Of a DNA stretch of 64,000 nt, positions 44,274 through 64,000 are shown in pieces (the first letter of the stretch is position 1; every line of letters begins with the position of its first letter). The notes beneath the pieces were generated by a model that worked only from the letters and a program-made list of their open reading frames with translations, did no database searches and was not told the origin of the DNA. This stretch comes from Candidatus Omnitrophota bacterium (GTDB taxonomy: Bacteria; Omnitrophota; Gorgyraeia; Duberdicusellales; 4484-171): NCBI GenBank assembly GCA_028692655.1, contig JAQUWY010000002.1:34851-98850 (forward strand). The letters run 5' to 3'. The position numbers were made by a program, and so were the translations under genes.

Positions 44274-45288
44274 ATTAAAAAGATGGTATCTGGAATTTAT
44301 TGAAAAGAGAGACAGAAATATTTACGAAAAGGCTCTGTATGGCTTTTTTTATCTTATTTCGTTATTTTACGGCAGGATTATTTATCTTAGGAACTTCTTT
44401 TACGATAAAGGCTTCATTTCTGTGTATCAGTCTAAAGCAAAAGTTATAAGCGTTGGCAACATCTCTTGGGCGGGTTCCGGAAAGACAACCCTCGCGGCTT
44501 TTCTCTATAAGAAGCTTTCTTCAACTCATTCTACCGCAATTTTACGCAGGGGCTACGGCAGGGATGAAGGAGAACTTCTCAAAGAGGTAACGGATTCGGT
44601 GTTTTCCTCTCCCAGCAGGAGTGATTTAGCAAAAAAACTCGGAAATAAATTTGACCTTTTTATTCTAGACGATGCCTTTCAACATCGCAAGCTGGCTAGA
44701 GATATTAACATAGTGGTTATGGCTGCCAGAGAATTTAAAGCCGGATTCAGGCTTATTCCGGCGTCTTTCTTTCGGGAACCAATAAATAGTTTAAGCCGGG
44801 CCGATATTGTTGTTTTGAATTATAGCGATGAAGCCGGCAATATATCTTCAATTAAAAAAAGTCTCCAAAGCCGGTTTCCCGGATTAAAAGTTTATCTTTC
44901 GAATTATCAGGTTTCAGGCTATAACGGCTTATCGGGAGAATCTTATCCGGCTGCTTTTCTAATGGGAAAAAGAGTAGCGGCATTAACCGCCATAGGCTAT
45001 CCGAAAGGCTTTTTTAATAAATTAAAAAGCGCCGGGGTTTCTGTTAAGCGTGAGATTACTTACCCAGATCACTATGAGCTGGGAGAGAGCGAATTTCGCA
45101 AATTGGAAAGTGAACTTCTGTCTTCGGGAATAAAAACACTGGTTATTACCGGCAAGGACAAATATCATATTCCCGAATCAGTTTCAGGCCTTGATATCTT
45201 CATAATGAACGTAGATTTAGTAATAGAGGCTGAAGAAGATTTTCTAAAGCAGGTAGATTCGGTTATTTCGGGAGGAAAGGATGTATAA
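44266..45288 (+). CDS. lpxK: tetraacyldisaccharide 4'-kinase
   Basis: 340 aa. ISVGNISWAGSGKTTL P-loop in the LpxK context. Overlaps waaA by 8 nt. Confidence 0.88.
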   Translation: MLKLKRWYLEFIEKRDRNIYEKALYGFFYLISLFYGRIIYLRNFFYDKGFISVYQSKAKVISVGNISWAGSGKTTLAAFLYKKLSSTHSTAILRRGYGRDEGELLKEVTDSVFSSPSRSDLAKKLGNKFDLFILDDAFQHRKLARDINIVVMAAREFKAGFRLIPASFFREPINSLSRADIVVLNYSDEAGNISSIKKSLQSRFPGLKVYLSNYQVSGYNGLSGESYPAAFLMGKRVAALTAIGYPKGFFNKLKSAGVSVKREITYPDHYELGESEFRKLESELLSSGIKTLVITGKDKYHIPESVSGLDIFIMNVDLVIEAEEDFLKQVDSVISGGKDV

Positions 45289-47086: not shown

Positions 47087-47112
47087 ACTAAGACTAACAG
47101 GAGGTTGTAATT

Positions 47113-49191: not shown

Positions 49192-49267
49192 TTTTATCAG
49201 AGCCAAAGTGTTTATTCCAGTAAACTGACGGAAAGCGGTAGAGTAAGATAAAACAGCTTATAGTATT

Positions 49268-50338
49268 ATGAACATTTTAATTCTAACAACCCACCTTGAT
49301 CCCGGAGGAATTTCCCGTTATGTTATCAATCTGTCCAAGGCTCTCTGCCAGGCTGGCCATAAGGTGTGGGTAGCTTCCGGCGGAGGACAGTGGGAGAAAG
49401 AATTATCTTTTGAAGCGGTTAGTTTTATCCATATACCTATAAAGACGAAGTCGATTTTTAGCCCTAAAATATTTTTTTCCTTCATAAATTTGCGCCGTTT
49501 TTTAAAAGAAAGAAAAATTGATATAATTCATTGTAATACCCGCGTGACGCAGTTGTTGGGATTCTTGTTGTCCAAGCCTGCCGGTGTTCCTTATGTCAGC
49601 GCTTTTCATGGTTTCTATAGGCCGTCGGCAGAAAGAAAACTTTTTCAATTTTCGGGAGCGATGTCAATAGCCGTAAGCAATGCGGTAAGGGAACATATAA
49701 TCAAGGATCTATGGGTTAAACCGGAGAAAGTGCGTGTTGTCTATAACGGGATTGATTTCAAAGATTTCAATACTGCCGAGAGCCAGCGTAAAAGTTGGGG
49801 GTTTAAATCAACGGATTATTTGATAGGCGTTCTGGGCAGGATCTCACGGGAAAAAGGGCATTTCTTAGTTGTTAAAGCCTTGAGCCTTCTGGCGAGAAAA
49901 CACAGCAACATCTATTTGATTATTTCAGGCAGGGGTAAAATGGAAGCAAACCTAAAAGAGCTTATACGAAATAAGTCTTTGGAAGGCAGAGTATTTTTTA
50001 AAGAATCTTCCGCAAATCAGTTCTTAAGCAGTATGGACTCAATTGTCGTTGCGTCCGAAAAAGAAGGCTTTGGATATTCGATTATTGAAGCTTTTAAAAA
50101 GGGAGTGCCGGTTATAGGCTTTAACACGGGAGGAATATCTGAAATTATCCGTAATCGTAGTAACGGCTTATTGTTTTATAGCTACGATGCTCTCTCTTTA
50201 GCCGGAGCAATTGAGGAGATGATGCTTAAAAATAACTTGCGCAGCGTTCTTATTGGTAAGGCCAGGGAAGATGTAGAATTCTTTTCGGCTAAAAGGATGG
50301 CTTTTGATACGGAGAAAGTTTACAGGGAGATAATATAA
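49268..50338 (+). CDS. GT4 family glycosyltransferase
   Basis: 356 aa. EKEGFGYSIIEA (EX7E) and the GT-B fold. Confidence 0.82.
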   Translation: MNILILTTHLDPGGISRYVINLSKALCQAGHKVWVASGGGQWEKELSFEAVSFIHIPIKTKSIFSPKIFFSFINLRRFLKERKIDIIHCNTRVTQLLGFLLSKPAGVPYVSAFHGFYRPSAERKLFQFSGAMSIAVSNAVREHIIKDLWVKPEKVRVVYNGIDFKDFNTAESQRKSWGFKSTDYLIGVLGRISREKGHFLVVKALSLLARKHSNIYLIISGRGKMEANLKELIRNKSLEGRVFFKESSANQFLSSMDSIVVASEKEGFGYSIIEAFKKGVPVIGFNTGGISEIIRNRSNGLLFYSYDALSLAGAIEEMMLKNNLRSVLIGKAREDVEFFSAKRMAFDTEKVYREII

Positions 50339-51105
50339 TGAAAAGAATTTTTCTTTTGTGCGGCGTAATAATTTTAGCCGTTTTTATTTTGTTCGGGGCA
50401 TACTTAAATGCTAATTACGCAACGCCCATACTTGTTTACCACTCTCTTGATGGGAAGAGAGCCGAAAATTATGCCGCGGTGGACATAAAAGTATTCCGGC
50501 GTCAAATGGAGTTTATAAAGAGGAATTCTTATAAAGTTATAAGCCTTGATAGATATTGCCGGTTATTAAGATCGGGGGAAGCTGTGCCAAGAAGAAGCTT
50601 GATTATAACTTTTGATGACGGTTACAAAGACAACCTTGAAGGGATAAAGACTTTAAAGGAATCAGAGTTTCCGGCTACTATTTTTATTATTGTGGATAAA
50701 GTCGGTAAAGAAGGGTATCTTTCTGAGGAAGATATAAAATCTTTTTTGGGCAACTCCCAAATATCTATAGGCTCTCATACTTTAACGCATGCTTATTTGC
50801 CGGGGGCAACGGTTAGTGAGTTAAAAAAAGAAATTGCCTTTTCAAAAGAAATTCTTGAGAAAAATTTTCCTCAAACGGTTTCTGCTATTGCTTATCCTGT
50901 GGGTGGTTTTGACGAAAGGGTTCTTAGGGAGGCCGAAGCTGCAGGATATCTTTGTGCCTGTTCTACTAACCGTGGTTTTTCGAAAAGAATAAATCCTTTT
51001 GCTCTCAGGAGAATAAAGATAACCAACTCTGACGGTGAGTTTAGCCTTTGGGCAAAGTTAAGCGGATTTTATAATGTTTTCCGTAAGCTTAAGAATCCCT
51101 ATTAA
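50338..51105 (+). CDS. polysaccharide deacetylase (NodB-homology, CE4)
   Basis: 255 aa with an N-terminal TM segment. TFDDGY (Asp-Asp) and HTLTH metal/catalytic motifs. Confidence 0.8.
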   Translation: MKRIFLLCGVIILAVFILFGAYLNANYATPILVYHSLDGKRAENYAAVDIKVFRRQMEFIKRNSYKVISLDRYCRLLRSGEAVPRRSLIITFDDGYKDNLEGIKTLKESEFPATIFIIVDKVGKEGYLSEEDIKSFLGNSQISIGSHTLTHAYLPGATVSELKKEIAFSKEILEKNFPQTVSAIAYPVGGFDERVLREAEAAGYLCACSTNRGFSKRINPFALRRIKITNSDGEFSLWAKLSGFYNVFRKLKNPY

Positions 51106-51114
51106 CCAGGAAGT

Positions 51115-52173
51115 ATGGACAAAAAAGAATTAAACAGGTTCCCGCAAAATAAAAGCAAAGATAAACGCATCCTTGTCGTTGGTGTTAATTGGCTGGGGGA
51201 CAGCATAATGACTACCCCGGCATTTAAAGCCTTAAAGCATGTTTATCCTGAATCTTACATAGCAGTAATGACTGTTTCAAGGGTAAAGGAAGTTTTTGAA
51301 GATAATCCCTGTGTGGATGAAGTTATTATTTTTGATGAAAAGACATCACATAAAAGTATTAAAGAAAAAATAAAGTTCATTAAATTCTTAAAAGAGAAAA
51401 AGTTTCAAAAGGCATTCTTGATACACCGCTCTTTTACCAGGGCTCTTATCTGCCGGTTGGCGGCAATTCCTTCCCGGGCAGGCTATCAGAGGCTAAAGAA
51501 TTATTTTATTTTAACTGACAAGGTAGGCTTACCTAAAGAAGGGCTGCATCGTCAGGATTATTATTTAAATCTTTTCAAAAAGTCAGGGATAGCCGTTGAA
51601 AATTCTTTGCCGGAGTTTTTTATACCACCGGGAGTCCTTGATAGAGTTTCCCGGGCTTTAGAATTCTTAAAGAAAGACCATTCCTGCCTGGTGGGAGTTA
51701 ATCCCTCTGCTAATTGGGAACTTAAACGCTGGCCGCCTGAATATTTTTCTGTTCTTTGTGACCGTTTGGTTAAAGGCATGGGGGCGGGTGTTGTTTTTGT
51801 GGGTGGTGAATCTGATGAAAAGATTACAAGGGAGGTAATCGGAAGAATGCGTGAACCGGCCTACAGCCTTTGCGGCAAGACAACCCTTAAGGAGCTAGCC
51901 GCGGTAATAAAAAATATCAGTCTTTTCATTTCAAATGATTCCGGGCCGGCTCATTTGTCTGCTGCTTTAGGGGTGAGTACCCTGGCCTTGTTTGGGCCAA
52001 CCTCACCAAAGATAACTTCACCACGTGGGCGAAGAGTCAGGGTGATTAAGAATGATTGTGGTTGTAAGGTGCCCTGCTATGATTTAAATTGTAAGAATAA
52101 TATTTGTATGCAGAAGATAACTGTTGAGGAAGTGTATTTGGAAGCGAAGAATATGCTGGATAACCTAGTTTAA
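51115..52173 (+). CDS. GT9 ADP-heptose:LPS heptosyltransferase
   Basis: 352 aa. ILVVGVNWLGDSIMTTPAFKALK N-terminal signature, LFGPTSP, and a C-terminal CGC...C...C motif. Confidence 0.82.
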   Translation: MDKKELNRFPQNKSKDKRILVVGVNWLGDSIMTTPAFKALKHVYPESYIAVMTVSRVKEVFEDNPCVDEVIIFDEKTSHKSIKEKIKFIKFLKEKKFQKAFLIHRSFTRALICRLAAIPSRAGYQRLKNYFILTDKVGLPKEGLHRQDYYLNLFKKSGIAVENSLPEFFIPPGVLDRVSRALEFLKKDHSCLVGVNPSANWELKRWPPEYFSVLCDRLVKGMGAGVVFVGGESDEKITREVIGRMREPAYSLCGKTTLKELAAVIKNISLFISNDSGPAHLSAALGVSTLALFGPTSPKITSPRGRRVRVIKNDCGCKVPCYDLNCKNNICMQKITVEEVYLEAKNMLDNLV

Positions 52174-52180
52174 TCCGCTT

Positions 52181-53071
52181 ATGGCTAAAAATATATTAAT
52201 AAATTTTCCCACTAACTTAGGAGATACCATTATGGGCCTTCCGGTATTGGACCGTTTGAAGTCCAATTATCCGCAGGCAAAAATAACTGTTATTGCTTCC
52301 TCAGCTACAAAAGAGTTTCTCTTGGCAAACAATTTTATCGATGAGGTAGTTGTTTTTAATAAGCATTGGACTAATATTCAGAAAATACGTTTTGTTCTGG
52401 GGCTGAGAGGTAAATATGATTTGATGGCAGATTTAAAAAATTCTTTTCTGCCCGTTCTTCTGGGGATAAGCGATCATACACCTTTTTTCAGGAAATTTCC
52501 CCAGGATATGCACTTGAAAGAACGCTATTTGTCTCTGGTCGAGCCAATTGCTCCCGAGGCCCGGAATCTTCACAGCCAATTTATTATAACCGGCGAGAAT
52601 GAGTCTTGCTGGAGGAGAGAAAAAATAGCTAAAGCTGTATTTATTGCCGGTTCTTCTCGTAACCGCTTTAAGAGGTACCCTGCAGATTTATTATGCAAGG
52701 CCATTGAAGAGATAAAAAGCTTTGCCCCGGTAGCGATTTTGGGCCAGCGAGATGAGAGAGAATTTTATCATAGTCTTTTATCTATGCCGGGGGTTATTGA
52801 TTTAGTAGGCAAAACCAGCATGAGCGAAGTGTATTTTTTACTTAAAGAATACGGGCGTTTGCTTATCAGTGTTGACTCTGGGTTGTTGCATTTAGGAAGT
52901 TATCTTAACCTGCCTATTTTGGCACTATTTGGGCCGACTGACCCCTGCCGATACGGCCCCTGGTCTAAACAAAGCGTTGTTTTATGTCCACAAAGCCATA
53001 ATCTTACCGATATATCACCGCAGGAGATAGTTGCTTCAGCCAGGCGTTTATTATCCAATGAAGAAACCTAA
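52181..53071 (+). CDS. GT9 heptosyltransferase family protein (short)
   Basis: 296 aa. ILINFPTNLGDTIMGLPVL and LFGPTDP. Lacks the C-terminal Cys motif. Confidence 0.75.
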   Translation: MAKNILINFPTNLGDTIMGLPVLDRLKSNYPQAKITVIASSATKEFLLANNFIDEVVVFNKHWTNIQKIRFVLGLRGKYDLMADLKNSFLPVLLGISDHTPFFRKFPQDMHLKERYLSLVEPIAPEARNLHSQFIITGENESCWRREKIAKAVFIAGSSRNRFKRYPADLLCKAIEEIKSFAPVAILGQRDEREFYHSLLSMPGVIDLVGKTSMSEVYFLLKEYGRLLISVDSGLLHLGSYLNLPILALFGPTDPCRYGPWSKQSVVLCPQSHNLTDISPQEIVASARRLLSNEET

Positions 53072-54092
53072 ACGCATACTTATTTTACGAACTGATAGGC
53101 TGGGGGACGTTATTCTTTCAACTCCGGCTATCAGGAATTTACGTTTGGCGTATCCTGATGCTCACATTGCTTTTCTTTGCCGGCCATACACCCGTCAGGC
53201 AGTGGAAGGTAATCCTTATTTGGATGAAGTTATAGAGTATGATAAACACGGCAGGCATAAAAGCTTTTCTTCCACTGTAAGATTTTCTTTCTGGCTGAGG
53301 ACAAAAAAGTTTGACTGGGCCGTTGTTTTACACCCCACCAATCGTGCTAATATGATAGTTTTTTTAGCCGGGATTCCCCTGCGTGTTGGGTTCAACCGTA
53401 AAACGGGATATTTACTGAATAAAAGAATTCCTCATAAAAAACAACAAGGAAAAAAACATGAAGTTGAATATACTTTAGATATATTGCGCTATATAGGTGT
53501 GGAGGTAAAGGACAAAGTGCTTTATTTTCCGGTAATTGATAAAGCTCGCAAGGTTGTTGACAAACTTTTTAATTCCAAAGGTGTGGATTCCGGCAAAAAA
53601 CTTCTGGTTATCCATCCTTCAGCGTCTTGTCCGTCTAAGCGCTGGAGCCAGAATAATTTTTCCCGCCTTATAAGGGTTCTCAAGGCTGCTAATCACGATT
53701 TAATAATTGCCGTGATTACCTCCGAAGCTGAGAAAAAATTTGGCAAAAAATTAGTAGAGGAGAATGATGTTGTTGATCTAAGAGGTAAACTCAATCTTGC
53801 AGAATTAGGGGCATTGCTGGAGAGGGCAAGCCTTTTGATATCAAACGATACCGGGCCGGTCCATATAGCTGCCGCTCTAAAAATTCCGGTGATTTCCATA
53901 TTTGGCCGTAATGACCCGGGCCTTTCGCCGTTACGCTGGCGGCCTTTAGGAAAAAACTCTTATTATTTGCATAAAGATGTTGGTTGCAAGAAATGCCTTG
54001 CGCATAATTGCGATAAAAACTTTTTATGCCTGCAATCAATTGCAGTTGAAGAAGTTTTTGAACTGGCCATAAAGTTTCTTAAGTCAAACTAG
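53058..54092 (+). CDS. GT9 ADP-heptose:LPS heptosyltransferase
   Basis: Start refined to ATG 53058 (MKKPKRILILRTDRLGDV). The listed 53031 start gives a 41-nt overlap. IFGRNDP and a C-terminal CKKC...C...C motif. Confidence 0.8.
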   Translation: MKKPKRILILRTDRLGDVILSTPAIRNLRLAYPDAHIAFLCRPYTRQAVEGNPYLDEVIEYDKHGRHKSFSSTVRFSFWLRTKKFDWAVVLHPTNRANMIVFLAGIPLRVGFNRKTGYLLNKRIPHKKQQGKKHEVEYTLDILRYIGVEVKDKVLYFPVIDKARKVVDKLFNSKGVDSGKKLLVIHPSASCPSKRWSQNNFSRLIRVLKAANHDLIIAVITSEAEKKFGKKLVEENDVVDLRGKLNLAELGALLERASLLISNDTGPVHIAAALKIPVISIFGRNDPGLSPLRWRPLGKNSYYLHKDVGCKKCLAHNCDKNFLCLQSIAVEEVFELAIKFLKSN

Positions 54093-54127: not shown

Positions 54128-54155
54128 TTGATAAAAATTTTATATCTGATATCAT
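54128..54155 (+). promoter_or_regulatory. candidate promoter of rex (TTGATA-16-TATCAT) within an AT-rich repeat region
   Basis: TTGATA at 54128-54133 and TATCAT at 54150-54155. The surrounding direct repeat AAATTTTATAT occurs twice, with flanking TCAGA/TCTGA inverted ends. Only 7 nt from the putative GTG start, so the start codon or the promoter call may be off. Confidence 0.25.
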
Positions 54156-54162
54156 AGAGTTT

Positions 54163-54822
54163 GTGAAAAATAGAACGAATATTATTCTTTGCTCAAAAAA
54201 GGCAAAATGTTCGAGTGAAATTATAAAACGGCTCAGCCTTTACTTGCGTAATCTTAAGCGGCTTGAGAAGGAAGGGGTTGAGACAATTTCTTCAGATAAG
54301 ATTACTCAGTTTTTGAATGCCAGTTCAGTGCAGTTTAGAAAAGATCTTTCTTATTTCGGCGGTTTTGGAAAGCCTGGTGTGGGGTATAAAGTTAAGTCAT
54401 TGCTTAAAGAGCTTGAAAATATACTGGGAGTAAATCAGGAGTGGGATATTGCCTTGGTTGGTGCCGGCAGGCTAGGGGGAGCGCTGTCACGCTTTGAAGG
54501 GTTTTCCCGGTTTAATCTGCGGATTGTTTGTGTGTTTGATAACGATAAGAAAGTTATAGGGAAAAAAAGAGGCCAGCTTCTGATCCAGGACGTGAAAGAC
54601 TTAGTAAAAACGGTTGAAAGAAAAAAAATCAGAATTGCTATAATCGCGACCCCTATGGAAGCCGCACAGAGCGTATGTCACGAGCTGACTAAAGCCGGGG
54701 TTAAGGGGATATTAAACTTTTCTCCCTTAGTTCTCAAAGTTCCCAATGGCGTTTGCGTTTCCAATGTTGATATGGCCTGTGAGCTTGAAAGTCTTATTTA
54801 TTTCGCCAAAAGGAAAAGATAA
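54163..54822 (+). CDS. rex: redox-sensing transcriptional repressor Rex
   Basis: 219 aa (GTG start). N-terminal winged helix (IIKRLSLYLRNLKRL, similar to B. subtilis IPQATAKRLPLYYRFLKNL). FRKDLSYFGGFGKPGVGY, then the Rossmann NADH site LVGAGRLGG. Confidence 0.85.
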   Translation: MKNRTNIILCSKKAKCSSEIIKRLSLYLRNLKRLEKEGVETISSDKITQFLNASSVQFRKDLSYFGGFGKPGVGYKVKSLLKELENILGVNQEWDIALVGAGRLGGALSRFEGFSRFNLRIVCVFDNDKKVIGKKRGQLLIQDVKDLVKTVERKKIRIAIIATPMEAAQSVCHELTKAGVKGILNFSPLVLKVPNGVCVSNVDMACELESLIYFAKRKR

Positions 54823-54838
54823 TTAACGGGAGGCAGAC

Positions 54839-55105
54839 ATGATTAAAAAGACTTTGCTCTTGGTTCTTGTAAATGTGCGCAAAGAGTCAGCAGCTAAGGT
54901 GCAAAAGATACTTACCGATTGGGGTTGTATTATAAAAACCCGCTTGGGAATACATGATGGGGTGCTTGATGATTGCACTAATTCAGGACTTATAATCCTT
55001 GAGCTTGTCGGAAGCGATAACCAGGCTCAGGAAATTAACCATAAGCTTAATCTCTTGGCTGGGGTTAAATCTGAGATCGTGGAGCTGCAGTTGCCTAAAG
55101 ATTAA
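54839..55105 (+). CDS. small ACT-like protein, putative [FeFe]-hydrogenase system regulator (TM1266-like)
   Basis: 88 aa with a GGGAGG RBS. Secondary-structure-like pattern of an ACT/NikR-C-terminal fold. Lies between rex and the hydrogenase structural genes. Family assignment is from memory of the TM1266-type family and is not verified. Confidence 0.35.
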   Translation: MIKKTLLLVLVNVRKESAAKVQKILTDWGCIIKTRLGIHDGVLDDCTNSGLIILELVGSDNQAQEINHKLNLLAGVKSEIVELQLPKD

Positions 55106-55134
55106 CCTAAAATAGCAATAAAAGGTACTAAAAG

Positions 55135-55674
55135 ATGAAATATAGCTTAACAAAACACAGGCCGGAGAAGATCAAAGACCGCTTAAGAATAGATAATATT
55201 ATTTCCCGCCATAAAGATACTCCCGGAGAATTATTGAATATCTTGGAAGAAACCCAGATTTTAAGTAAATATAACTATCTTTCTCCCGCTCAGTTGAAGT
55301 ACATAGCCGAAAAAACTTCTTACCCGCTTTCTGTGGTTTACAGCGTAACCACTTTTTATTCTTTTTTTAACCTTAAGCCTCAGGGGGAACATTGTATAAT
55401 TGTCTGCCGGGGTACTGCATGCCATACCAAAGGGTCGCGCCGGATACTGGATTATCTAGAAAGTGTGCTTGATTTTGGCGATGAAAAAATCAATGAAGGA
55501 GAGAAAGTTTTTTTAACTACAAAAGACAAAGTTATTACTATTAAGACTGTTGCTTGTTTTGGCCAGTGCGCTCTTGCGCCTGTGGTTGAAGTAGACGGAA
55601 TCATTCATAGCCGGATGACTGTAGAAAAGATGAAAAAAGTATTGTCAGCTTTAAAAAAGAAGGGCCTTAAATGA
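55135..55674 (+). CDS. NuoE-like [2Fe-2S] thioredoxin-fold subunit of multimeric [FeFe]-hydrogenase (HydC/HndA-like)
   Basis: 179 aa. CRGTACH...C...CFGQCALAP four-Cys pattern of the NuoE/HoxE family. Confidence 0.85.
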   Translation: MKYSLTKHRPEKIKDRLRIDNIISRHKDTPGELLNILEETQILSKYNYLSPAQLKYIAEKTSYPLSVVYSVTTFYSFFNLKPQGEHCIIVCRGTACHTKGSRRILDYLESVLDFGDEKINEGEKVFLTTKDKVITIKTVACFGQCALAPVVEVDGIIHSRMTVEKMKKVLSALKKKGLK

Positions 55675-58600
55675 AAGTGGTTGATATTAAAACCCTTGAA
55701 AAGGTAAAAGCAAAAGGGTTAAAAAAACTCTTTCCTTCTGTGGCTAGGATTACGGTAGGTTTAGGCACCTGCGGTGCCGGCAATAATGCGCAAGGGATTT
55801 ATGATTTTCTTGAAAGATATTTCTCAAAAAAGAAAAAAAGGATTTTTCTCACCAAAACAGGCTGCTTTGGATTTTGTGCTCAAGAACCTTTAGTTACTTT
55901 TAGGGTTCCGGGAAAGCCTCTGCTTATGTTCAGTAAGCTTAATGAGAAGTCCGCGAAACGCATAGCTGATAGCGTTTTACAGGGTGCACCTGATTCCGGT
56001 AATATTTTGTGTAAGATAGAAGAATGGGACCACTTAACTTCAAAATTAAATTATGGCAAAGGGTATCCTGCGATTCCTTCTTGGAAAGAGGTTCCTTTTT
56101 TTAAGAGGCAGAAAAAAATAGTTTTGAGAGACTGCGGGTTGATTAACCCCGATGATATAGAAGAATATTTCGGAGTAGGAGGCTACAGTGCACTTTTTAA
56201 AGTTTTGCATCAGTTTAGCCCTCAGGAGTGTTTGAATGAAGTAAAGGAATCTGGATTGCGTGGCCGGGGAGGAGCAGGCTTTCCGGTTTGGAAAAAATGG
56301 GAGATTCTTAAAAATAAAGTATCCGATAAAAAATATATTGTTTGCAATGCCGATGAAGGCGATCCCGGGGCATATATGAATAGGAACGAGTTGGAAGGTG
56401 ACCCTCATATGATTATAGAGGGTATGGCTATAGCCGGCTTTATTACCGGTTCTCATGAAGGAATCATATATTGCCGTGCAGAATATCCTCTGGCTGTAGA
56501 AAGGCTTCATAATGCCATTGCTCAGGCTAAAAGATACGGTGTTTTAGGCGCAAAGGTACTCGGTTCTGATTTTGATTTTAACCTTCATATTGTTGAGGGG
56601 GCAGGTGCTTTTGTCTGCGGAGAGGAGACCGCCCTCATTGCTTCTATTGAAGGAAAATCCGGACGCCCGAATGTCAGGCCGCCTTTTCCGGCAGAAAAAG
56701 GTATTTGGGGCTATCCTACCAATATAAATAATGTCGAGACCTGGGCTAATATCCCGGTGATTATAGCAAAAGGGGGAAAAGATTTTTCTCTTACGGGAGC
56801 AAAAGGAAACTCCGGCACTAAAGTGTTTTCTTTGGTGGGCAAGGTTAAGAATACCGGTCTGGTTGAGCTTCCTCTGGGCACGAGCCTTCAGACTCTTGTC
56901 TTTGATATCGGCGGAGGCACCGGCACGAATAAAAAAATAAAAGCAGTTCAGACCGGCGGGCCTTCGGGCGGATGCATACCGATGCGCCTCTTTAATACTC
57001 CCATTGATTATGAGTCTCTAACCAATTTAGGCACGATTATGGGTTCGGGAGGCGTAGTGGTTATGGACGAAGATAATTGTATGGTTGATGTTGCCAGATA
57101 TTTTACTGAATTCACTACTGCGGAATCTTGTGGTAAGTGTACTCCCTGCCGAGAGGGTTTAAGCCAGATTTTAAAGATGCTGCAGGATATTGCTGCCGGC
57201 AGGGCTTCGATTGATATTCTGGATAAGGCAAGCGAATTAGGCAGTATAATAAAAGATTCGGCTCTTTGCGGATTAGGCCAGACCGGGCCCAATCCACTTT
57301 TAACCACCCTGAAATATTTTCGGCAGGAATACAAACAGCATATTAAAGATAATTATTGTGATGCGGGAGTCTGTCAGGAAATGTTTTTAGCCCCTTGTGA
57401 AAATAGCTGTCCCTTACATATGAATATACCGGCTTATCTTTCGATGTTTGAAGAAGGAAGGGTAAAAGATGCTTTCGAGTCTATAATCAGGGATAATCCT
57501 TTGCCGGCTTCTATAGGAAGGATTTGCCATTTTCATTGTAAGCTTCGTTGTCGCAGAGAAGATATAGATTCTCCCGTTGCTCAAGGAGAAGTCCACCGCT
57601 ATATAGCGGATGTTCTTCGCGGAACAAAAGAAGAAAAAGAAGTGCTTGATAAGATTTGTAAAGAAAAACTTCCTTTAACCGGGAAAAAAATAGTCATTAT
57701 CGGTGCCGGCCCGGCAGGGCTTACCGCGGCATATTATCTCATACGCTTAGGGCATAAAGTAACTGTTTATGACCGGGCTCATGAGGCCGGCGGGATACTG
57801 CGATGGGGAATTCCGGCATACAGGCTTCCCCGTGATATTTTGAAGCACGAGATAGGTTTTTTGGGTAAATTAGGGGTGAAATTTATTTTTAATAAAAAGA
57901 TTTCTCCTCGCGATATAAAAAGCTTGCAAGAAAAATCTCAGGCGTTAATTATTGCCGCTGGCGCTTACAAAGAAATTTCTCTGAATATACCCGGAGAAGG
58001 CTCAAGCGGCGTATTTTCCGGAAGTAGTTTTCTGGAGAGCATTGCCGGCGGCAGGAAACCGGCAATTGGGAAAAAGGTGGTTATTGTAGGCGGAGGAAAT
58101 GTAGCCATAGATGCTGCCAGGAGTGCTATGCGCCTGGGGGCAAGAGTTACTATAGTTTATCGCCGGCAGGAACCAGATATGCCGGCTAATCACGCTGAAA
58201 TTCTTGAGGCTTATAAAGAAGGCGTAAAGATGTTGTTTATGAGAGCCCCCAAGAGAATAATAGGCTCAGATCCGGACAATAAAGTCAAAGCTATAGAATT
58301 GTCAGTAATGAAACCAGGCCCGTGTGATTCCTCCGGAAGGAAAAAACCTCTGGATACGGGTGAAACTGAAACTTTAGCTTGCGATACAATACTCTTTGCT
58401 ATCGGAGAACGTGTTGATGCTGACTTTGCTGCCGCCTGCGGGCTTGAACTTACGGCTTACAAAACAATAACTGCTGATGAATTCACTTTAGAAACTAATA
58501 TAAAAAAGGTTTATGCGGGAGGAGATATAGTTACCGGCCCGGGGACTGCGGTTGAAGCCATGGCTCAGGGAAAGCGTATGGCAAGAGCTATCGATAAGAA

Positions 58601-58826
58601 TCTGGCTTCTTGTGATAGGTTTGGGCTTCTATATAAAACGTTTGATTACAGTAATCAGGCTCCTTTTAAACCGGCGCCTGCTGCGCGAAGCAAGATAAAA
58701 GTTATGGATTTAAATAAACGTTTAAAAGGTTTCAAAGAGGTTTCTTTTGGCTTAAGTCCTGTTCAGGCAAAAGTAGAGTGCCAACGGTGTTTGCGCTGTG
58801 ATATCAAGGAAATAAGCGGCATCTAA
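55671..58826 (+). CDS. three-module flavoprotein: HndB-like [2Fe-2S] domain + NuoF-like (FMN/NADH, [4Fe-4S]) + GltD-like (FAD/NAD(P)H, 2x[4Fe-4S]) fusion
   Basis: 1051 aa. N-terminal GTCGAG...GCFGFC Trx-like domain. NuoF core [33 protein letters not shown]. From ~nt 57355 a glutamate-synthase-small-subunit-like domain: YCDAGVCQE...C..C Fe-S region, IIGAGPAGLTAAYYL (FAD), VVIVGGGNVAIDAARSA (NAD(P)H). Confidence 0.85.
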   Translation: MKVVDIKTLEKVKAKGLKKLFPSVARITVGLGTCGAGNNAQGIYDFLERYFSKKKKRIFLTKTGCFGFCAQEPLVTFRVPGKPLLMFSKLNEKSAKRIADSVLQGAPDSGNILCKIEEWDHLTSKLNYGKGYPAIPSWKEVPFFKRQKKIVLRDCGLINPDDIEEYFGVGGYSALFKVLHQFSPQECLNEVKESGLRGRGGAGFPVWKKWEILKNKVSDKKYIVCNADEGDPGAYMNRNELEGDPHMIIEGMAIAGFITGSHEGIIYCRAEYPLAVERLHNAIAQAKRYGVLGAKVLGSDFDFNLHIVEGAGAFVCGEETALIASIEGKSGRPNVRPPFPAEKGIWGYPTNINNVETWANIPVIIAKGGKDFSLTGAKGNSGTKVFSLVGKVKNTGLVELPLGTSLQTLVFDIGGGTGTNKKIKAVQTGGPSGGCIPMRLFNTPIDYESLTNLGTIMGSGGVVVMDEDNCMVDVARYFTEFTTAESCGKCTPCREGLSQILKMLQDIAAGRASIDILDKASELGSIIKDSALCGLGQTGPNPLLTTLKYFRQEYKQHIKDNYCDAGVCQEMFLAPCENSCPLHMNIPAYLSMFEEGRVKDAFESIIRDNPLPASIGRICHFHCKLRCRREDIDSPVAQGEVHRYIADVLRGTKEEKEVLDKICKEKLPLTGKKIVIIGAGPAGLTAAYYLIRLGHKVTVYDRAHEAGGILRWGIPAYRLPRDILKHEIGFLGKLGVKFIFNKKISPRDIKSLQEKSQALIIAAGAYKEISLNIPGEGSSGVFSGSSFLESIAGGRKPAIGKKVVIVGGGNVAIDAARSAMRLGARVTIVYRRQEPDMPANHAEILEAYKEGVKMLFMRAPKRIIGSDPDNKVKAIELSVMKPGPCDSSGRKKPLDTGETETLACDTILFAIGERVDADFAAACGLELTAYKTITADEFTLETNIKKVYAGGDIVTGPGTAVEAMAQGKRMARAIDKNLASCDRFGLLYKTFDYSNQAPFKPAPAARSKIKVMDLNKRLKGFKEVSFGLSPVQAKVECQRCLRCDIKEISGI

Positions 58827-58844
58827 ATGTATAGAGGAAATTGT

Positions 58845-60626
58845 ATGGGTAAAAAGACATGCAACGTAAAGATAAACGGAACTAATTGTCAAGCTGAAGA
58901 AGGGATTAATCTTGTAGAAGCTTGCTTGCAGCAGGGAATTATAATTCCGACACTTTGCTACCTCAAGGATCTTAATGAAAGCGGAGCTTGTTCAGTTTGT
59001 TTGGTTGAAGTCAAAGGTGCTAAGACTCTGCTTCGGGCTTGTGTTACTAAGGTTAGAGACGGAATGGAGATATATACTGATACCGAGCGTATCCGGCGGG
59101 CCCGTAAAGTTGTTGTAGAACTTATTCTGGCCAATCATCCCAAAGATTGCCTGGGGTGTGAAAAAAACCAGAATTGTGATCTGCAAAGAATAGCTTATGA
59201 GTTAGGTATTGAAAATATACGTTATCCAAAAACGCGCCAGAAAGATTTCTCTATAGACAACTCATCTCCTTCAATAATAAGAGACCCTAACAAGTGTATT
59301 TTATGTGGAAGATGTATAGAGGTGTGCAGTAAAATTCAAGAAGTTAACGCTATTGATTTTATCAAGCGTGGGCATGCAATGCAGGTTTCGACATTTTTTG
59401 ATGGCGGTTTAGGGAATTCAGAATGTACTAATTGCGGCCAATGTGTGTTGGTCTGCCCTACGGGGGCTTTAGCCGAGAACAACTCTATAGGCGAGGTCTG
59501 GAGAGTTTTAGACGATAAGGAGCAGATAGTAATAGTTCAGACTGCGCCGGCGATAAGAGCGGCAATCGGCGAAGCTTTTGGTTTTAATACAGGGGTTCCG
59601 ACTACCGGAAAATTAGCCGCTTCCCTGCGGCGCTTGGGGTTCTCTAAGATCTTTGATACGCAATTCGCTGCTGACCTCACTATTATCGAAGAAGGTTCGG
59701 AGTTTCTCACAAGATTAAAAAATAATGATAAAATACCGACAATTACGTCTTGTTCTCCCGGTTGGATAAAATTTGGCGAAACTTTTTTCCCGGGAATATT
59801 GGATAATATTTCAACCTGTAAATCACCGCAGCAGATGTTCGGTGCAATAGCTAAGACCTATTATGCTCAAAAGATGAACATTGATCCCAGGAAAATTAAA
59901 ATAATTTCTGTTATGCCCTGCACCGCGAAGAAATTCGAAGCTTTACGCCCGGAAATAAACAGTGCATTTTCTTTCTGGAAAGATAAGCTTGCTCTTAGTA
60001 AAAAAGAATACTTTCCCGATGTTGACTATGTGCTTACGACTCGGGAATTAATCAGGATGATAAAAGAGGCGGGCATTGATTATGCAAATCTTGCCGATGA
60101 AGGATTTGATGACCCTCTGGGGGTTTCTACCGGTGCAGCTACTATATTTGGTGCCAGCGGAGGGGTGATGGAAGCCGCTCTTCGTTCAGCATATTTTTAT
60201 TTAACCGGCACAGAACTTAAGGATATTGAACTGAATGCCGTAAGAGGGCTCTCCGGAATCAAAGAAGCCAGTTTAGAAATAGCCGGAAAAAAGATAAAAG
60301 TTGCGGTTGCCCACGGCCTGGGTAATGCCCGCAAATTAATGCAGCAGGTTGCAAGAGGCGAGAGCCCGTATCATTTTATAGAAATAATGGCTTGTCCCGG
60401 AGGCTGCATCGGCGGAGGCGGCCAACCTTTACCGGTCAATGATGAGATCAGGAAGCTTCGCATAAAAGCGCTTTACCAAGAGGATAGAAGCCTTGCCTAT
60501 CGCCGTTCTCATCAGAACCCGGCTGTTATAAAGCTCTATTCCGAATTTCTTAAAAAACCAAATGGGCACCTTTCTCATAAGCTTCTTCATACGCACTATC
60601 ATAAGCGCCAGCCGGTTAAAATATAA
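58845..60626 (+). CDS. hydA: [FeFe]-hydrogenase catalytic subunit HydA (M3/CpI architecture) with variant L1 motif TSCSPGW
   Basis: Start preferred at ATG 58845 (RBS AGAGGA 7 nt upstream). The alternative is ATG 58827, directly after the upstream stop codon. N-terminal [2Fe-2S] domain, His-ligated cluster HPKDCLGCEKNQNC, and 2x[4Fe-4S] (CILCGRCIEVC; CTNCGQCVLVCP). H-cluster motifs L2 MPCTAKKFE and L3 EIMACPGGCIGGGGQP are present. L1 reads TSCSPGW (nt 59745-59765). Confidence 0.9.
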   Translation: MGKKTCNVKINGTNCQAEEGINLVEACLQQGIIIPTLCYLKDLNESGACSVCLVEVKGAKTLLRACVTKVRDGMEIYTDTERIRRARKVVVELILANHPKDCLGCEKNQNCDLQRIAYELGIENIRYPKTRQKDFSIDNSSPSIIRDPNKCILCGRCIEVCSKIQEVNAIDFIKRGHAMQVSTFFDGGLGNSECTNCGQCVLVCPTGALAENNSIGEVWRVLDDKEQIVIVQTAPAIRAAIGEAFGFNTGVPTTGKLAASLRRLGFSKIFDTQFAADLTIIEEGSEFLTRLKNNDKIPTITSCSPGWIKFGETFFPGILDNISTCKSPQQMFGAIAKTYYAQKMNIDPRKIKIISVMPCTAKKFEALRPEINSAFSFWKDKLALSKKEYFPDVDYVLTTRELIRMIKEAGIDYANLADEGFDDPLGVSTGAATIFGASGGVMEAALRSAYFYLTGTELKDIELNAVRGLSGIKEASLEIAGKKIKVAVAHGLGNARKLMQQVARGESPYHFIEIMACPGGCIGGGGQPLPVNDEIRKLRIKALYQEDRSLAYRRSHQNPAVIKLYSEFLKKPNGHLSHKLLHTHYHKRQPVKI

Positions 60627-60684
60627 CCAGTAATGTTTCATATTGCCAAAAGCCGTCATTTTCTATAAAATAATTAAATATTAT

Positions 60685-60712
60685 TTGACAGGCTCCTTGC
60701 CGGTGATATAAT
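60685..60712 (+). promoter_or_regulatory. sigma70-like promoter of the downstream hnd-type hydrogenase operon
   Basis: TTGACA (60685-60690), a 16-nt spacer, then TGaTATAAT extended -10 (60704-60712). Confidence 0.5.
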
Positions 60713-60728
60713 CGCCTATCACCCAAGA

Positions 60729-60746
60729 TTGTGACAAAATTCACAA
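60729..60746 (+). promoter_or_regulatory. Rex operator
   Basis: TTGTGACAAAATTCACAA is a perfect inverted repeat matching the Rex consensus TTGTGA-N6-TCACAA. It lies ~17 nt downstream of the -10 and 29 nt upstream of the NuoE-like ATG. Confidence 0.65.
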
Positions 60747-60774
60747 ATAATTATAATCATAAATTCATAGCCCT

Positions 60775-61260
60775 ATGGAAGCCAGCAATAATATCAGAAG
60801 TGATAAAGAAATTAAAGACCTGGTTGAGAAATGGAAAGGTGTGGAAGGCAATCTTATTATGATCCTGCATACCATACAGGATGAGTATGGTTATATTCCC
60901 CGCCACGTATCTTTTGAGCTCCAGAAATTGCTTGATATACCTTTAGCCAGGATTTATGAAGTAATAACTTTTTATAATTACTTCAAACTGGAACCGCCGG
61001 GAAAGCATAAGATATCTCTTTGTATGGGTACAGCTTGTTATCTTAAGGGCGGGGTTGACATATTAGGAGAGCTAAAAAGCATACTGCATATAGAACCCGG
61101 CCAGACTACAAAAGACGGGCTATTTACTATTGAACTGGTTAGATGCCTTGGCTGCTGCGGCTTATCACCGGTAATGATGATTGACGGAAAGATTTACGGA
61201 AAACTGTCTCAGGAAAAAATTCCCGAGATTCTAACGCATTATATAGAAGCCGAAAGTTAA
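60775..61260 (+). CDS. hndA: NuoE-like [2Fe-2S] subunit (HndA-like)
   Basis: 161 aa. CMGTACY...C..C...LGCCGLSP NuoE-family Cys pattern. Confidence 0.85.
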   Translation: MEASNNIRSDKEIKDLVEKWKGVEGNLIMILHTIQDEYGYIPRHVSFELQKLLDIPLARIYEVITFYNYFKLEPPGKHKISLCMGTACYLKGGVDILGELKSILHIEPGQTTKDGLFTIELVRCLGCCGLSPVMMIDGKIYGKLSQEKIPEILTHYIEAES

Positions 61261-61281
61261 ATTTTAGAATAAGGCGGGTAA

Positions 61282-61623
61282 ATGGATAAGCTAACTAAAG
61301 ATAATTTTCAAAAAGCTAAAAACGATTCAGTCCAAAAGAAAACTAATTGGATAAAAGTGGGCATGAGCACCTGTGGTATAGCAGCCGGGGCCAGAGAGGT
61401 TTACGATACTTTAACCGAGGAAGTTAAACGCCGTAACCTCAACATTGATATTCTTAAGACTGGGTGTTTAGGCATGTGCTATATTGAACCTCTGGTAGAA
61501 GTTTGTATAGAGGGAGTACCGCATGTTGTCTATGGTAATGTCGATACAAAGGCTGCGTTGGGAATTGTTGATAAACATATTTGCGGCAAGAGAGTTATGA
61601 ATGACCATTTGGTAATAAAGTAA
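61282..61623 (+). CDS. hndB: small thioredoxin-like [2Fe-2S] ferredoxin subunit (HndB-like)
   Basis: 113 aa. STCG...GCLGMC...C Cys pattern. Homologous to the N-terminal domain that is fused to NuoF in the first operon. Confidence 0.7.
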
Positions 61624-61631
61624 TAAAGGCT

Positions 61632-63374
61632 ATGTATAGAAAAACAATATTTATAAAGGATACCGATTCCCAAGGGCTTGACCGCACCAAGGAATTCTAT
61701 AATAAGTTTTTGGAAAACCTGCGCTCGAGAAATCTTCAAAATGACATTCAGGTTGCCAGGGCAGCTGATATCGGTATATATAACCAGGGAATTGTCTTGA
61801 GGGTTTATGGCGAGGACACAATATATGTTCAGCTTAAAGAAACGGATATTGATAATATTATTTCTCTCACCATCGAAAAAAATGAAATTATATCTTCCTT
61901 GCAATATAAGAAAAAAGATAAGCAATTAAGAAGAGTGTTGAGAAACTGCGGGGTTATAAATCCTGACTGTATTGAGGATTATCTTGCTAATGGAGGCTAT
62001 CAAGGGCTTTATAAAGTGTTAACTTCGTTGAAGCCGGAGGAAGTTATTAAAGAGTTAAAAATAAGCGGCTTGCGCGGGCGCGGCGGCGGCGGCTTTCCTA
62101 CCTGGATGAAGTGGGATTTTGCGCTTAAGACAGAATCCGATCAGAAATATATTATTTGTAACGGAGACGAAGGCGATCCCGGGGCTTATATGGACCGTAG
62201 CGTTTTAGAAGGAGACCCTCATTCGGTAATAGAAGGGATGATCATTGCCGGTTATACTATAGGCGCTAGCAAGGGTTATTTTTATATCCGCGCGGAGTAT
62301 CCCCTGGCGATAGAAAGAATTCAAAATGCTATTGACCAGGCCTATTCCAAAGGATTGATAGGCGAAAAGATATTAAACAGCGGTTTTAATTTTGATTTAT
62401 CCATACGCCTTGGTGCCGGAGCCTTTGTTTGCGGTGAGGAAACCGCTCTTATTGCTTCTATTGAGGGCAAACGCGGTACGCCCTTGCCTAGGCCGCCCTA
62501 TCCTTCGGTAAAAGGCTTATGGTCTAAGCCTACAGTTATTAATAATGTAGAAACTTTAGCTAATGTTGCTTATATATTTATTAGGGGAGCAAAAGAATTT
62601 GCTAAACTGGGAACTGAAACTTCCAAAGGAACAAAAGTATTCGCTTTAACCGGAAAAGTAAAAAACTCCGGGTTGATAGAAGTCCCCATGGGAACTACGT
62701 TAAGGGAGATAGTCTTTGATGTTGGCGGAGGAGTTTTAGATAATAAAAATATAAAGGCAGTTCAGACCGGAGGGCCCTCCGGAGGAGTTATCCCTGCCCA
62801 GTATCTGGATACGCCTGTAGATTATGAAAATCTTAGTAAGCTTGGTTCGATAATGGGTTCAGGCGGCATGATTGTTATGGATGAAACTGATTGTATGGTC
62901 GATATAGCAAAGTTTTATTTAGGTTTCTGCGTTGAAGAATCTTGCGGTAAATGCGCACCTTGCAGGATCGGCGGCAGTCAGATGCTTGATATATTAACCC
63001 GCATATCCAAGGGCCAGGCTCAAAACCATGATTTGGAGACGCTAAGCAGGATATCGTTTGCCATGCAAAAAGCTTCTCTTTGCGGTTTAGGCCAAACTGC
63101 CCCCAATCCGGTTGTTTCTACTTTGAAGCATTTTCTTCCGGAATACAAAGAACATACCGAGAATAAACGTTGTCCGGCGGGAAAATGTTTGGATCTTTTA
63201 AGCTATAAGATTATTGACGAAAAATGTAAACGCTGCGGAGCCTGCGTACGGATTTGTCCGGTTAGTGCTATAAGTGGAAACCGCGAACATGGTTACAGTA
63301 TAGACACTCAGAAATGTACAAAATGCGGCCAGTGCATTAGTGTTTGCAAATTTAAAGCGATATCTAAGGAGTGA
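61632..63374 (+). CDS. hndC: NuoF-like NAD(P)H-binding flavoprotein with C-terminal 2x[4Fe-4S] ferredoxin domain (HndC-like)
   Basis: 580 aa. [35 protein letters not shown]-terminal [12 protein letters not shown] / [11 protein letters not shown]. The N-terminal ~110 aa contains no cysteine. Confidence 0.88.
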
Positions 63375-63375
63375 C

Positions 63376-64000
63376 ATGGTAAAAGCGAAAATAAATGGCA
63401 TAGATGTCCAGGTGGCCAGAGGCACCTCTATTCTTACTGCTGCTAAAAAAGTTAATATAAAAATTCCTTCGCTTTGCAAACATCCTGATTTGGACGCTAC
63501 TGCGGCTTGTGGTATATGTATTGTAAAAGTTAAGGGCAGCAAAAAAATGCTGCGTTCGTGCTGCACGCCCTTGGAAGAGGGTATGGATATCATAACCCAC
63601 GATGACGAACTTCAGGATATAAGGCGTACAGTTATTGAGTTAATCTTATCCAACCATCCCGATGAATGCCTTGAATGCGGCCGGAATAATAACTGCGAAC
63701 TTCAAAAATTAGCCGCTGATTTTGGTATTCGCCAACAGCCGTTTAAAGAATTTTTGAGAGACCTTCCTAAAGATGACTCAACAAAAACTATTGTTATTGA
63801 TCCACGTAAATGTATTCAGTGCGGCAGATGTGTGCAGGTTTGCCAGGATATGCAGGATGTTTGGGCCCTTTCTTTCTTAGAGAGAGGGATCGAAACCCGG
63901 ATATCGCCGGCCGGAGACATAAATCTGTCTGAAAGTCCATGCGTGCGTTGCGGCCAGTGTTCAGCTCATTGTCCTACCGGGGCTATCGTTGAATACGATG
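63376..64000 (+). CDS. hndD: [FeFe]-hydrogenase catalytic subunit N-terminal part (HndD-like), 3'-truncated by window end
   Basis: Frame open to the window end. [2Fe-2S] domain (CKHPDLDATAACGICIV...C), HPDECLECGRNNNC, CIQCGRCVQVC, CVRCGQCSAHCPTGA. The H-cluster domain lies beyond the window. Confidence 0.8.
   Translation, partial: MVKAKINGIDVQVARGTSILTAAKKVNIKIPSLCKHPDLDATAACGICIVKVKGSKKMLRSCCTPLEEGMDIITHDDELQDIRRTVIELILSNHPDECLECGRNNNCELQKLAADFGIRQQPFKEFLRDLPKDDSTKTIVIDPRKCIQCGRCVQVCQDMQDVWALSFLERGIETRISPAGDINLSESPCVRCGQCSAHCPTGAIVEYD

Follow-up and report, generated by a model that had tools for sequence, protein, structure and literature searches.

The HydABC (Bfu) hydrogenases of T. maritima, T. 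kivui, and A. woodii (HydDB group A3) consist of three subunits: a NuoE-like HydC, a NuoF-like HydB, and HydA, which carries the H-cluster. In these canonical enzymes, the mobile [2Fe-2S] cluster of HydC carries electrons from the flavin mononucleotide (FMN) site to the cluster pair at the C-terminus of HydB. This ferredoxin-like domain of BfuB binds ferredoxin and reduces it via clusters B3 and B4, which receive low-potential electrons from the mobile [2Fe-2S] cluster of the NuoE-like subunit (PMC12018979). The 64,000-nucleotide stretch of a Candidatus Omnitrophota genome analyzed here (contig JAQUWY010000002.1; hereafter the window) encodes the same three subunits on its + strand: hydC (55135..55674), a NuoE-like thioredoxin-fold [2Fe-2S] subunit (Pfam 2Fe-2S_thioredx, 127 bits); a fused flavoprotein gene that we designate hydB::gltD (55671..58826); and hydA (58827..60626), the [FeFe] hydrogenase catalytic subunit (NCBIfam NF040763, 860 bits, cutoff 765; Pfam Fe_hyd_lg_C, 321 bits). 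The HydB of the window shares with its Bfu counterparts the N-terminal [2Fe-2S] domain, the FMN/NADH site, the [4Fe-4S] cluster, and the auxiliary Cys/His site, but it does not have the C-terminal 2x[4Fe-4S] ferredoxin-like domain (B3/B4), the place of which is taken by a module for flavin adenine dinucleotide (FAD) and NADP(H). The domain order, the conserved ligands, the replacement of one domain by another, the conserved operon, and its wide distribution are direct observations. We put forward, as a serious but tentative possibility, that the locus encodes a HydABC-type [FeFe] hydrogenase that would couple H2 to both NAD(H) and NADP(H), with NADP(H) in the place of ferredoxin.

The closest described relatives of the two halves of this protein are found in the Stn/NfnABC enzymes, which are Bfu-type NADH-dependent ferredoxin:NADP+ transhydrogenases (S. 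ovata, C. saccharolyticus, and T. sibiricus). The N-terminal half most closely resembles NfnB and StnB, and the C-terminal half the NfnB-like module found in NfnA and StnC, with which it shares the circular permutation, the cluster cysteines, and the FAD and NADPH motifs. In Stn/NfnABC, the module is inserted in a NuoG/FdhF-like A subunit without an H-cluster, and BfuB keeps its ferredoxin-like domain; by contrast, the module in the window is located on the B subunit, where it replaces the ferredoxin-like domain, and a full HydA serves as the A subunit. This contrast is illustrated by locus L071, which the spacing of tblastn matches had suggested to be a variant with HydB, a ferredoxin domain, and GltD in succession, and which proved to be a canonical StnABC locus with separate genes. 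The NfnAB/NfnSL transhydrogenases (P. furiosus NfnI and T. maritima Nfn) share the large-subunit fold, the two [4Fe-4S] clusters, FAD, and NADPH, but differ from the protein described here in that its module has a permuted topology, a His in place of the Glu cluster ligand, and an attachment to a NuoF core.

The reading frame 55671..58826 (+) is open from ATG to stop, with no stop codon or frame break, and encodes 1051 residues in a single chain, as the initial annotation of this DNA had described. That annotation had also raised the possibility that a masked frameshift joins two genes, that is to say, that hydB and gltD are really separate genes brought together by an assembly or frameshift error. 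We give this artefact virtually no weight. NCBI holds a 100% identical 1051-residue protein from a Candidatus Omnitrophica metagenome-assembled genome (labelled "FAD-dependent oxidoreductase"), and the best 120 homologues are likewise fused over their full length (1024–1058 residues, 56–82% identity, query coverage 98–100%). Fused homologues come from independent assemblies, with at least 120 protein clusters in the near clade and at least 120 in a second clade among the matches listed, both counts being lower bounds; a scan of species-representative genomes further revealed about 54 loci in genome contigs, from many phyla, with the same uninterrupted fusion. Moreover, the permuted module needs its C-terminal tail for a complete Fer4_20 domain, and we found nothing in support of the artefact.

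Pfam analysis of the fused protein returned all four domains that the initial annotation had named for checking: Complex1_51K (residues 191–362, 151 bits) and NADH_4Fe-4S (residues 473–557, 101 bits), with an SLBB domain (residues 386–434) between them, followed by Fer4_20 (residues 561–650, 69 bits) and Pyr_redox_2 (residues 673–967, 137 bits). The NCBIfam matches divide the chain in the same way, with nuoF_fam at residues 162–558 and the GltD-like models PRK12771 and PRK12814 at residues 533–1048. The protein thus comprises (i) an N-terminal thioredoxin (Trx)-like [2Fe-2S] domain (residues 1–125; 55671..56045, +), supported by structure alignments and homologue conservation; (ii) a NuoF/HydB core (residues 140–572; 56088..57386, +) with the FMN/NADH site, the [4Fe-4S] cluster, and the auxiliary Cys/His site; and (iii) a permuted NfnB/GltD-type module (residues 573–1051; 57387..58826, +), supported by Pfam, NCBIfam, and structure alignments. 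Residues 27–105 of the first domain match the product of a separate HndB-like gene in the neighbouring hydrogenase cluster (61282–61623; 35% identity, E = 2e-17), in agreement with the relationship noted earlier. This N-terminal fusion is normal for HydB-type subunits: the solved HydB, NfnB, and StnB chains share it, and the N-terminus of the fused protein aligns with their N-terminal [2Fe-2S] domains.

Comparison with the HydB paralogue encoded in the neighbouring cluster (61632–63374, +; 580 residues, with a C-terminal 2x[4Fe-4S] domain) located the point of exchange. The two proteins are 54% identical over residues 108–572 of the fused protein and diverge directly past C568, after the conserved His-x5-Cys-x4-Cys site. 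Past the break at residue 572 (nucleotide 57386), the paralogue continues into its Fer4 2x[4Fe-4S] domain (its residues 525–578) and the fused protein into the GltD module. The Pfam scan of the fused protein found no Fer4-type dicluster domain, and after residue 560 it found Fer4_20 and Pyr_redox_2 instead. The fusion point proposed near 57355 is therefore retained with a shifted position. Similarly, the description of the protein as NuoF joined to a complete GltD-like module stands as far as the fusion is concerned, but not as a simple addition: since the canonical ferredoxin-binding Fer4 domain is gone and the GltD module stands in its place, the ferredoxin arm of HydB is exchanged for an FAD/NADP(H) arm.

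The closest solved matches of the module are C. saccharolyticus NfnA (9bov_A, E = 1e-97), T. sibiricus NfnA (9n5u_A), and S. ovata StnC (8oh5_C), followed by P. furiosus NfnL (5jca_L, E = 1.6e-86). The tail of the fused protein (residues 1013–1046, ...FKEV...RCLRCD) is co-linear with the end of the StnC and NfnA modules, which is the N-terminal segment of the stand-alone NfnL. When this tail was moved in silico to the position before "APCENSCP", the Fer4_20 match was extended from profile positions 30–109 (72.5 bits) to positions 2–109 (85.0 bits). Judged from the tail alignment and this extension, the module has, relative to NfnB/GltD, the circular permutation that is also seen in Stn/NfnABC, which suggests that domains were shuffled between A and B subunits within complexes of the Bfu type. 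The AlphaFold2 model of the fused chain, a structure prediction that the initial annotation had proposed, is confident, with a predicted local distance difference test score of 85 and a predicted template modelling (TM) score of 0.79. Foldseek comparison with solved chains (TM scores normalised to the target) matched the N-terminal half with NfnB, StnB, and HydB chains (TM 0.83–0.96) and the C-terminal half with NfnA, StnC, and NfnL chains (TM 0.81 for 5jca_L); none of the solved chains covers both halves.

The cofactor sites were compared among 62 full-length close homologues and in an alignment of 53 fused loci from distant phyla. Invariant in the 62 homologues are (i) C34, C65, and C69 of the Trx-like [2Fe-2S] domain, of which the candidate fourth ligand C114 is conserved at 90% or more in the clade of the window; (ii) the NuoF [4Fe-4S] ligands C487, C490, C493, and C533; (iii) the auxiliary site formed by C470, H557, C563, and C568; (iv) the module cluster ligands C576, C580, C619, C623, C627, H642, C1040, and C1043; (v) the FAD motif GAGPAG (residues 678–683) in the FAD Rossmann region (residues 673–707); and (vi) GGGNVA (residues 807–812) and Y830-R831-R832 in the NADP(H) Rossmann region (residues 800–840), together with the MPA motif of the module. 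In the 53 fused loci, the cofactor positions are kept, with one exception at the YRR motif (L034) and a variable position 642. At the level of motif, profile, and fold, the single chain thus carries FMN and FAD, two nucleotide sites, and the extra [4Fe-4S] clusters, as the initial annotation had claimed, and the second dinucleotide motif, on which that claim had been made to depend, is present upon alignment.

The conservation of these motifs bears on the question of whether the nucleotide site of the module is used at all. The site could be vestigial or regulatory, with the module serving only as an Fe-S/FAD conduit or as a structural scaffold. Nothing direct favours this explanation; a degenerate domain does occur nearby, in the form of the cysteine-free Trx-like domain of the HydB paralogue. 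However, the GxGxxA, YRR, and MPA motifs, invariant in the 62 homologues, are also conserved across distant clades, which argues for a functional nucleotide site and makes a vestigial one very improbable. Its probable specificity is suggested by the motif YRR-x3-(E/D)M, which is common to the module and to C. saccharolyticus NfnA, T. sibiricus NfnA, S. ovata StnC, and P. furiosus NfnL. NfnABC, StnC, and NfnB have been described as NADPH-binding (PMC9304861, PMC10482914, PMC12018979), and by this similarity the module site may prefer NADP(H).

Residue 642 (nucleotides 57594–57596) differs between the clades of the fused family (loci L001–L053). It is His in the clade of the window, which comprises the [FeFe] loci of Omnitrophota and Dysgonomonadaceae, the [NiFe] loci of Acidobacteriota, and a Lokiarchaeal locus, and Lys in the other fused clades. 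H642 aligns with K170 of S. ovata StnC, so that the non-cysteine ligand of the proximal cluster is His642 here versus Lys170 in StnC, and with the Glu ligand of the proximal cluster of P. furiosus NfnL (PMC10482914); as a control of the StnC numbering, C114 of StnC falls at the position given in the same study. Three natural ligand variants (His, Lys, and Glu) thus occur at this proximal [4Fe-4S] position, which is presumed to tune the cluster potential.

These comparisons also bear on the possibility that ferredoxin is still a substrate, docking at the distal [4Fe-4S] cluster of the module or at another surface, so that the complex would combine a hydrogenase with an Nfn-like enzyme and its FAD would possibly be bifurcating. 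NfnB carries a ferredoxin-binding site and reduces ferredoxin via its two [4Fe-4S] clusters (PMC10482914), and ferredoxin was named as the likely acceptor for a HydB "glutamate synthase domain" in PMC11216029. R718, the equivalent of the arginine at FAD-N5 of NfnB, is conserved in nearly all of the 53 fused loci and invariant in the 62 close homologues. However, this arginine is also conserved in the non-bifurcating StnC and hence does not discriminate. The module is nearest to the Stn/NfnABC type with the same permutation, the FAD of which is non-bifurcating; the Glu ligand of the NfnL proximal cluster is replaced by His here and by Lys in the other fused clade; and no NfnA/S-like small subunit (FAD and [2Fe-2S], NAD site) is encoded in 54163–64000, which leaves the operon without such a partner. 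We consider ferredoxin use by the fused enzyme unlikely. The initial annotation had offered two functions, coupling to NADH and NADPH together or a built-in Nfn-like transhydrogenase or bifurcation site. The former stands as the best reading of the sequence, and the latter is less likely because the StnC flavin is non-bifurcating, the NfnA/S partner is missing, and the Glu ligand is absent.

The auxiliary Cys/His site bears on the choice between the proposed coupling and a simpler arrangement. Its H557-x5-C563-x4-C568 pattern corresponds to H525/C531/C536 in the [NiFe] Bfu hydrogenase; Schut et al. (PMC9304861) reported that bifurcating BfuB proteins conserve this site ("B2" or Zn site) and that non-bifurcating homologues lack it. 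In an uncoupled dual-cofactor hydrogenase, FMN/NADH and FAD/NADPH would be independent entry or exit points on one Fe-S wire to the H-cluster, and either nucleotide pool would exchange electrons with H2 in the absence of any energetic coupling. Such an arrangement agrees with the homologous FAD of StnC, which was shown to be non-bifurcating and to act as a plain electron-input flavin (PMC10482914). It also agrees with the use of the same fused flavoprotein in [NiFe] clusters of the HoxU/Y/H type in Acidobacteria and others. To our knowledge, Hox-type enzymes are not regarded as bifurcating. On the other hand, an uncoupled wire between an NADH site and an NADPH site would in effect be a free transhydrogenase, under which the NADH/NADPH disequilibrium would run down, and the Cys/His site reported as typical of bifurcating BfuB (PMC9304861) is strictly kept in all of the fused proteins examined, the 53 fused loci aligned among them. 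The uncoupled enzyme is therefore possible but, in our judgment, doubtful.

The arrangement of the genes suggests that the three products act together. The hydC stop and the hydB::gltD start overlap by 4 nucleotides, hydA starts at the base directly after the hydB::gltD stop, and hydC, the fused gene, and hydA stand in this succession again in loci of Omnitrophota, Margulisiibacteriota, Bacteroidales, and Firmicutes; because of this overlap, this abutment, and this recurrence, the products of hydC, hydB::gltD, and hydA would be expected to form a three-subunit hydrogenase complex. HydA comprises a 2Fe-2S domain, a NuoG-type 4Fe-4S domain, a 2x4Fe-4S domain, the H-cluster domain, and a small-subunit-like tail, and its best solved matches, T. 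kivui and A. woodii HydA1, align with it end to end. Its first H-cluster signature (near residues 306–312) reads TSCSPGW, compared with TSCCPxW in CpI and T. kivui HydA. We considered a lost H-cluster cysteine and dismissed it; A. woodii HydA1 (7q4v_A), which has been characterised structurally, shares TSCSPGW exactly, and the motif is therefore a natural variant.

In the coupling that we tentatively favour, electrons would move among the H-cluster and the two flavin sites, FMN/NAD(H) and FAD/NADP(H); NADP(H) would stand on the branch that is served by ferredoxin in the canonical enzymes. The route, modelled on the canonical Bfu enzyme, would lead from the FMN site through the mobile [2Fe-2S] cluster of HydC to the cluster pair of the NfnB-like module and on to FAD, and the net reaction would be NADH + NADPH + 2 H+ <-> 2 H2 + NAD+ + NADP+. 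In vivo potentials are about -280 mV for NAD and about -380 mV for NADP, compared with -414 mV for H2 (PMC9304861, Table 1). According to a Nernst estimate, NADH and NADPH as 1:1 donors (mean -330 mV) would support H2 up to about 1e-3 bar, and NADH alone about 3e-5 bar. The more reducing NADPH pool would thus help to drive H2 evolution from NADH, and in the reverse direction H2 could charge both the NADH and the NADPH pools.

Several points weigh against this coupling. Ferredoxin might still dock at the clusters of the module, in the way that it does at the distal cluster of NfnL, and the specificity of the module for NADP(H) over NAD(H) rests on motif similarity. A canonical ferredoxin-type Hnd cluster lies next door, so that the fused enzyme need not be the main H2 route. 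In an Omnitrophota relative (L083, 3907–12916), acetate kinase (ackA) and stand-alone nfnA-like and nfnB-like genes directly precede hydC, hydB::gltD, and hydA. In L083, ferredoxin could be linked via this separate enzyme, which would fit the proposed coupling, or the fused module could have a different job. The adjacency of a separate Nfn to the fused hydrogenase in L083 hints at a functional link via the NADPH pool.

The fused proteins form a family of single chains of about 1010–1090 residues, in which the NuoF core is directly followed by the permuted GltD module, and the protein of the window fits this description. Database entries name them "FAD-dependent oxidoreductase" or "NADH-quinone oxidoreductase subunit F". 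The second clade, Firmicutes-rich and equally large, has proteins of about 1030 residues and includes the cultured Mobilitalea sibirica. The count of partner genes covers 80 retrieved loci, of which many lie on short contigs. A NuoE-like gene precedes the fused gene almost everywhere, and the downstream partners vary: (i) a full [FeFe] HydA in at least 13 loci, and in 3 more with an intervening second HydC/HydB pair; (ii) HoxU-like, HoxY, and HoxH ([NiFe]) in 9–12 loci from Bryobacterales and other Acidobacteriota, Anaerolineae, Polyangiaceae, and Balneolales; and (iii) a HoxU-like protein and a GltB-like FMN protein in 6 loci, one of them from a Lokiarchaeon. In a rough neighbour-joining distance tree, which shows clustering by partner class only and gives neither rooting nor event counts, the loci group by partner, and the window sits with the Omnitrophota and Dysgonomonadaceae [FeFe] loci in a group that adjoins the [NiFe] Acidobacteriota clade, apart from the Firmicutes [FeFe] clade. 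Among the [FeFe] loci, that of Margulisiibacteriota has rex on its 5' side and, on its 3' side, hydF and two radical S-adenosylmethionine (HydG/HydE-like) genes, followed by a second HydB/HydA pair; that of Bacteroidales is a bare three-gene unit of hydC, the fused gene, and hydA.

In the [NiFe] loci (L007, 8001–13856, from Bryobacterales; L005, L006, L009, L052, and L053), the fused gene is followed by a HoxU-like gene and genes for the NiFe small subunit (Oxidored_q6) and large subunit. By their gene content, these loci would encode a [NiFe] hydrogenase that is Hox-like but carries an additional FAD/NADPH module; we found no published description of such an enzyme. The third arrangement (L010, 5752–16172, from Promethearchaeota archaeon Loki_b31; L013, L041, L045, L046, and L049) consists of a NuoE-like gene, the fused NuoF::GltD, a HoxU-like gene, and a 526-residue GltB-like FMN protein (PF01645), and gives the appearance of a glutamate-synthase-like enzyme that is supplied by the dual-nucleotide module. 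Three ORFs of 416 residues flank the unit in the Loki locus; the two that were scanned are glutamate dehydrogenases.

In the window, the order of the operon is rex, a TM1266-like gene, hydC, hydB::gltD, and hydA. The first gene, rex (54163..54822, +), encodes the redox-sensing (NADH/NAD+) transcriptional repressor (NCBIfam NF003995, 255 bits, cutoff 126; Pfam Put_DNA-bind_N and CoA_binding) and is preceded by a promoter-like site (TTGATA-16-TATCAT with an extended -10 TG; 54128..54155, +), a consensus match only (10/12). The small CPF_0552/TM1266-like protein encoded between rex and hydC (54839..55105, +; 88 residues; NCBIfam NF052672, 96.4 bits, cutoff 85; weak Pfam TM1266-like match) is a putative member of the iron-only hydrogenase system regulator family, and no such gene was present in the Margulisiibacteriota and Bacteroidales relatives examined.

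Downstream of the operon lies a canonical Hnd-type cluster (60775..64000, +), which the end of the window cuts short. It has the layout of HndABCD of the Desulfovibrio fructosovorans type, with a NuoE-like gene (60775–61260, +), the separate HndB-like gene carrying the Cys motif (61282–61623, +), the NuoF-like HydB paralogue with its Fer4 tail, and a second HydA-like gene that starts at 63376 (+) and runs off the window; by contrast, the fused protein joins the HndB-like, NuoF, and GltD parts in one chain without a Fer4 tail. The N-terminal Trx-like domain of the HydB paralogue (window positions 61632–61950) matches the 2Fe-2S ferredoxin model at residues 21–91 (E = 2.9e-8); because the first approximately 105 residues contain no cysteine, this domain is probably cluster-less. 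The second cluster is served by a sigma-70 promoter (TTGACA-16-TATAAT; 60685..60712, +) that matches the consensus at 12/12 positions. A predicted Rex operator, TTGTGAcaaaatTCACAA (60729..60746, +), lies 17 nucleotides after this promoter, between it and hndA2, and is the sole zero-mismatch match in the 64 kb. No Rex operator within 2 mismatches was found upstream of the first operon (rex, hydC), and the second cluster alone has one. The position of rex at the head of the hydB::gltD operon suggests Rex (NADH/NAD+) control of the cluster, and the perfect operator of the second cluster together with the fused-enzyme operon headed by rex fits a redox-valve role. Directly 5' of the hydrogenase clusters are lipopolysaccharide-core genes (Kdo transferase, a lipid A acyltransferase fusion, and GT4/GT9 heptosyltransferase-like genes; 42939–54092), and housekeeping genes also lie upstream; in the first approximately 28 kb of the window, ORF sizes and order are suggestive of rpoBC and ribosomal-protein operons.

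The fused proteins touch on several published classifications. HydDB [FeFe] group A2 (glutamate-synthase-linked, putative) also ties a GltD-type NAD(P)H module to a group A [FeFe] hydrogenase, but the defining feature of A2 is a GltD-like neighbour that has no NuoF, whereas NuoF and GltD here form one chain with a NuoE partner. The HydDB rule for A2 and A3 inspects the protein encoded downstream of HydA; because the gene downstream of HydA in the window is NuoE-like, this HydA would, according to the published rule, be called neither A2 nor A3. Likewise, the InterPro definition of BfuB requires the ferredoxin-type 4Fe-4S domain IPR017896 (Schut et al. 2022), and the fused HydB, judged from the Pfam result, appears to fall outside it. 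The two sets of rules thus probably miss or misfile these enzymes.

Our literature searches for a fusion of HydB, NuoF, or HoxF with GltD returned no biochemical or structural study, and the sole mention found was in PMC11216029 (Cell 2024). There, the HydB diaphorase of archaeal hybrid [FeFe]/[NiFe] group F complexes, set among a HydA-HyhS hybrid, HyhL, and HydD, is given a "glutamate synthase (GltA) domain", to which one sentence is devoted, with ferredoxin proposed as its likely acceptor. By this description, to which the likeness is confined, the archaeal HydB presumably belongs to the same fused family. The fused design is conserved and widespread, and it is not categorically new, since Stn/NfnABC already show each of its parts as well as the principle of shuffling. 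With considerable reserve, we suggest that these could be the first Bfu-type enzymes in which the low-potential branch ends in a pyridine nucleotide and is independent of ferredoxin, with NADH and NADPH confurcated to H2 or H2 bifurcated to NAD+ and NADP+, and that, more broadly, NuoE and NuoF::GltD could form a portable dual-nucleotide module for [FeFe], [NiFe] Hox-type, and GltB-like enzymes.

If NADP(H) does replace ferredoxin on the coupling arm, the enzyme would catalyse a new reaction type in flavin/Fe-S-based electron bifurcation, and it would put the current Bfu mechanism to a natural test, since a ferredoxin-like domain has been swapped for a two-electron acceptor. Because rule-based classifiers probably miss or misfile the fused enzymes, inventories of H2 metabolism from metagenomes may be systematically off for them. 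The proposed coupling, if true, would also call for different models of H2 thresholds and redox balancing in many uncultured anaerobes, namely Omnitrophota, Margulisiibacteriota, Bacteroidales, Clostridia, Acidobacteriota, Chloroflexota, and a Lokiarchaeon.

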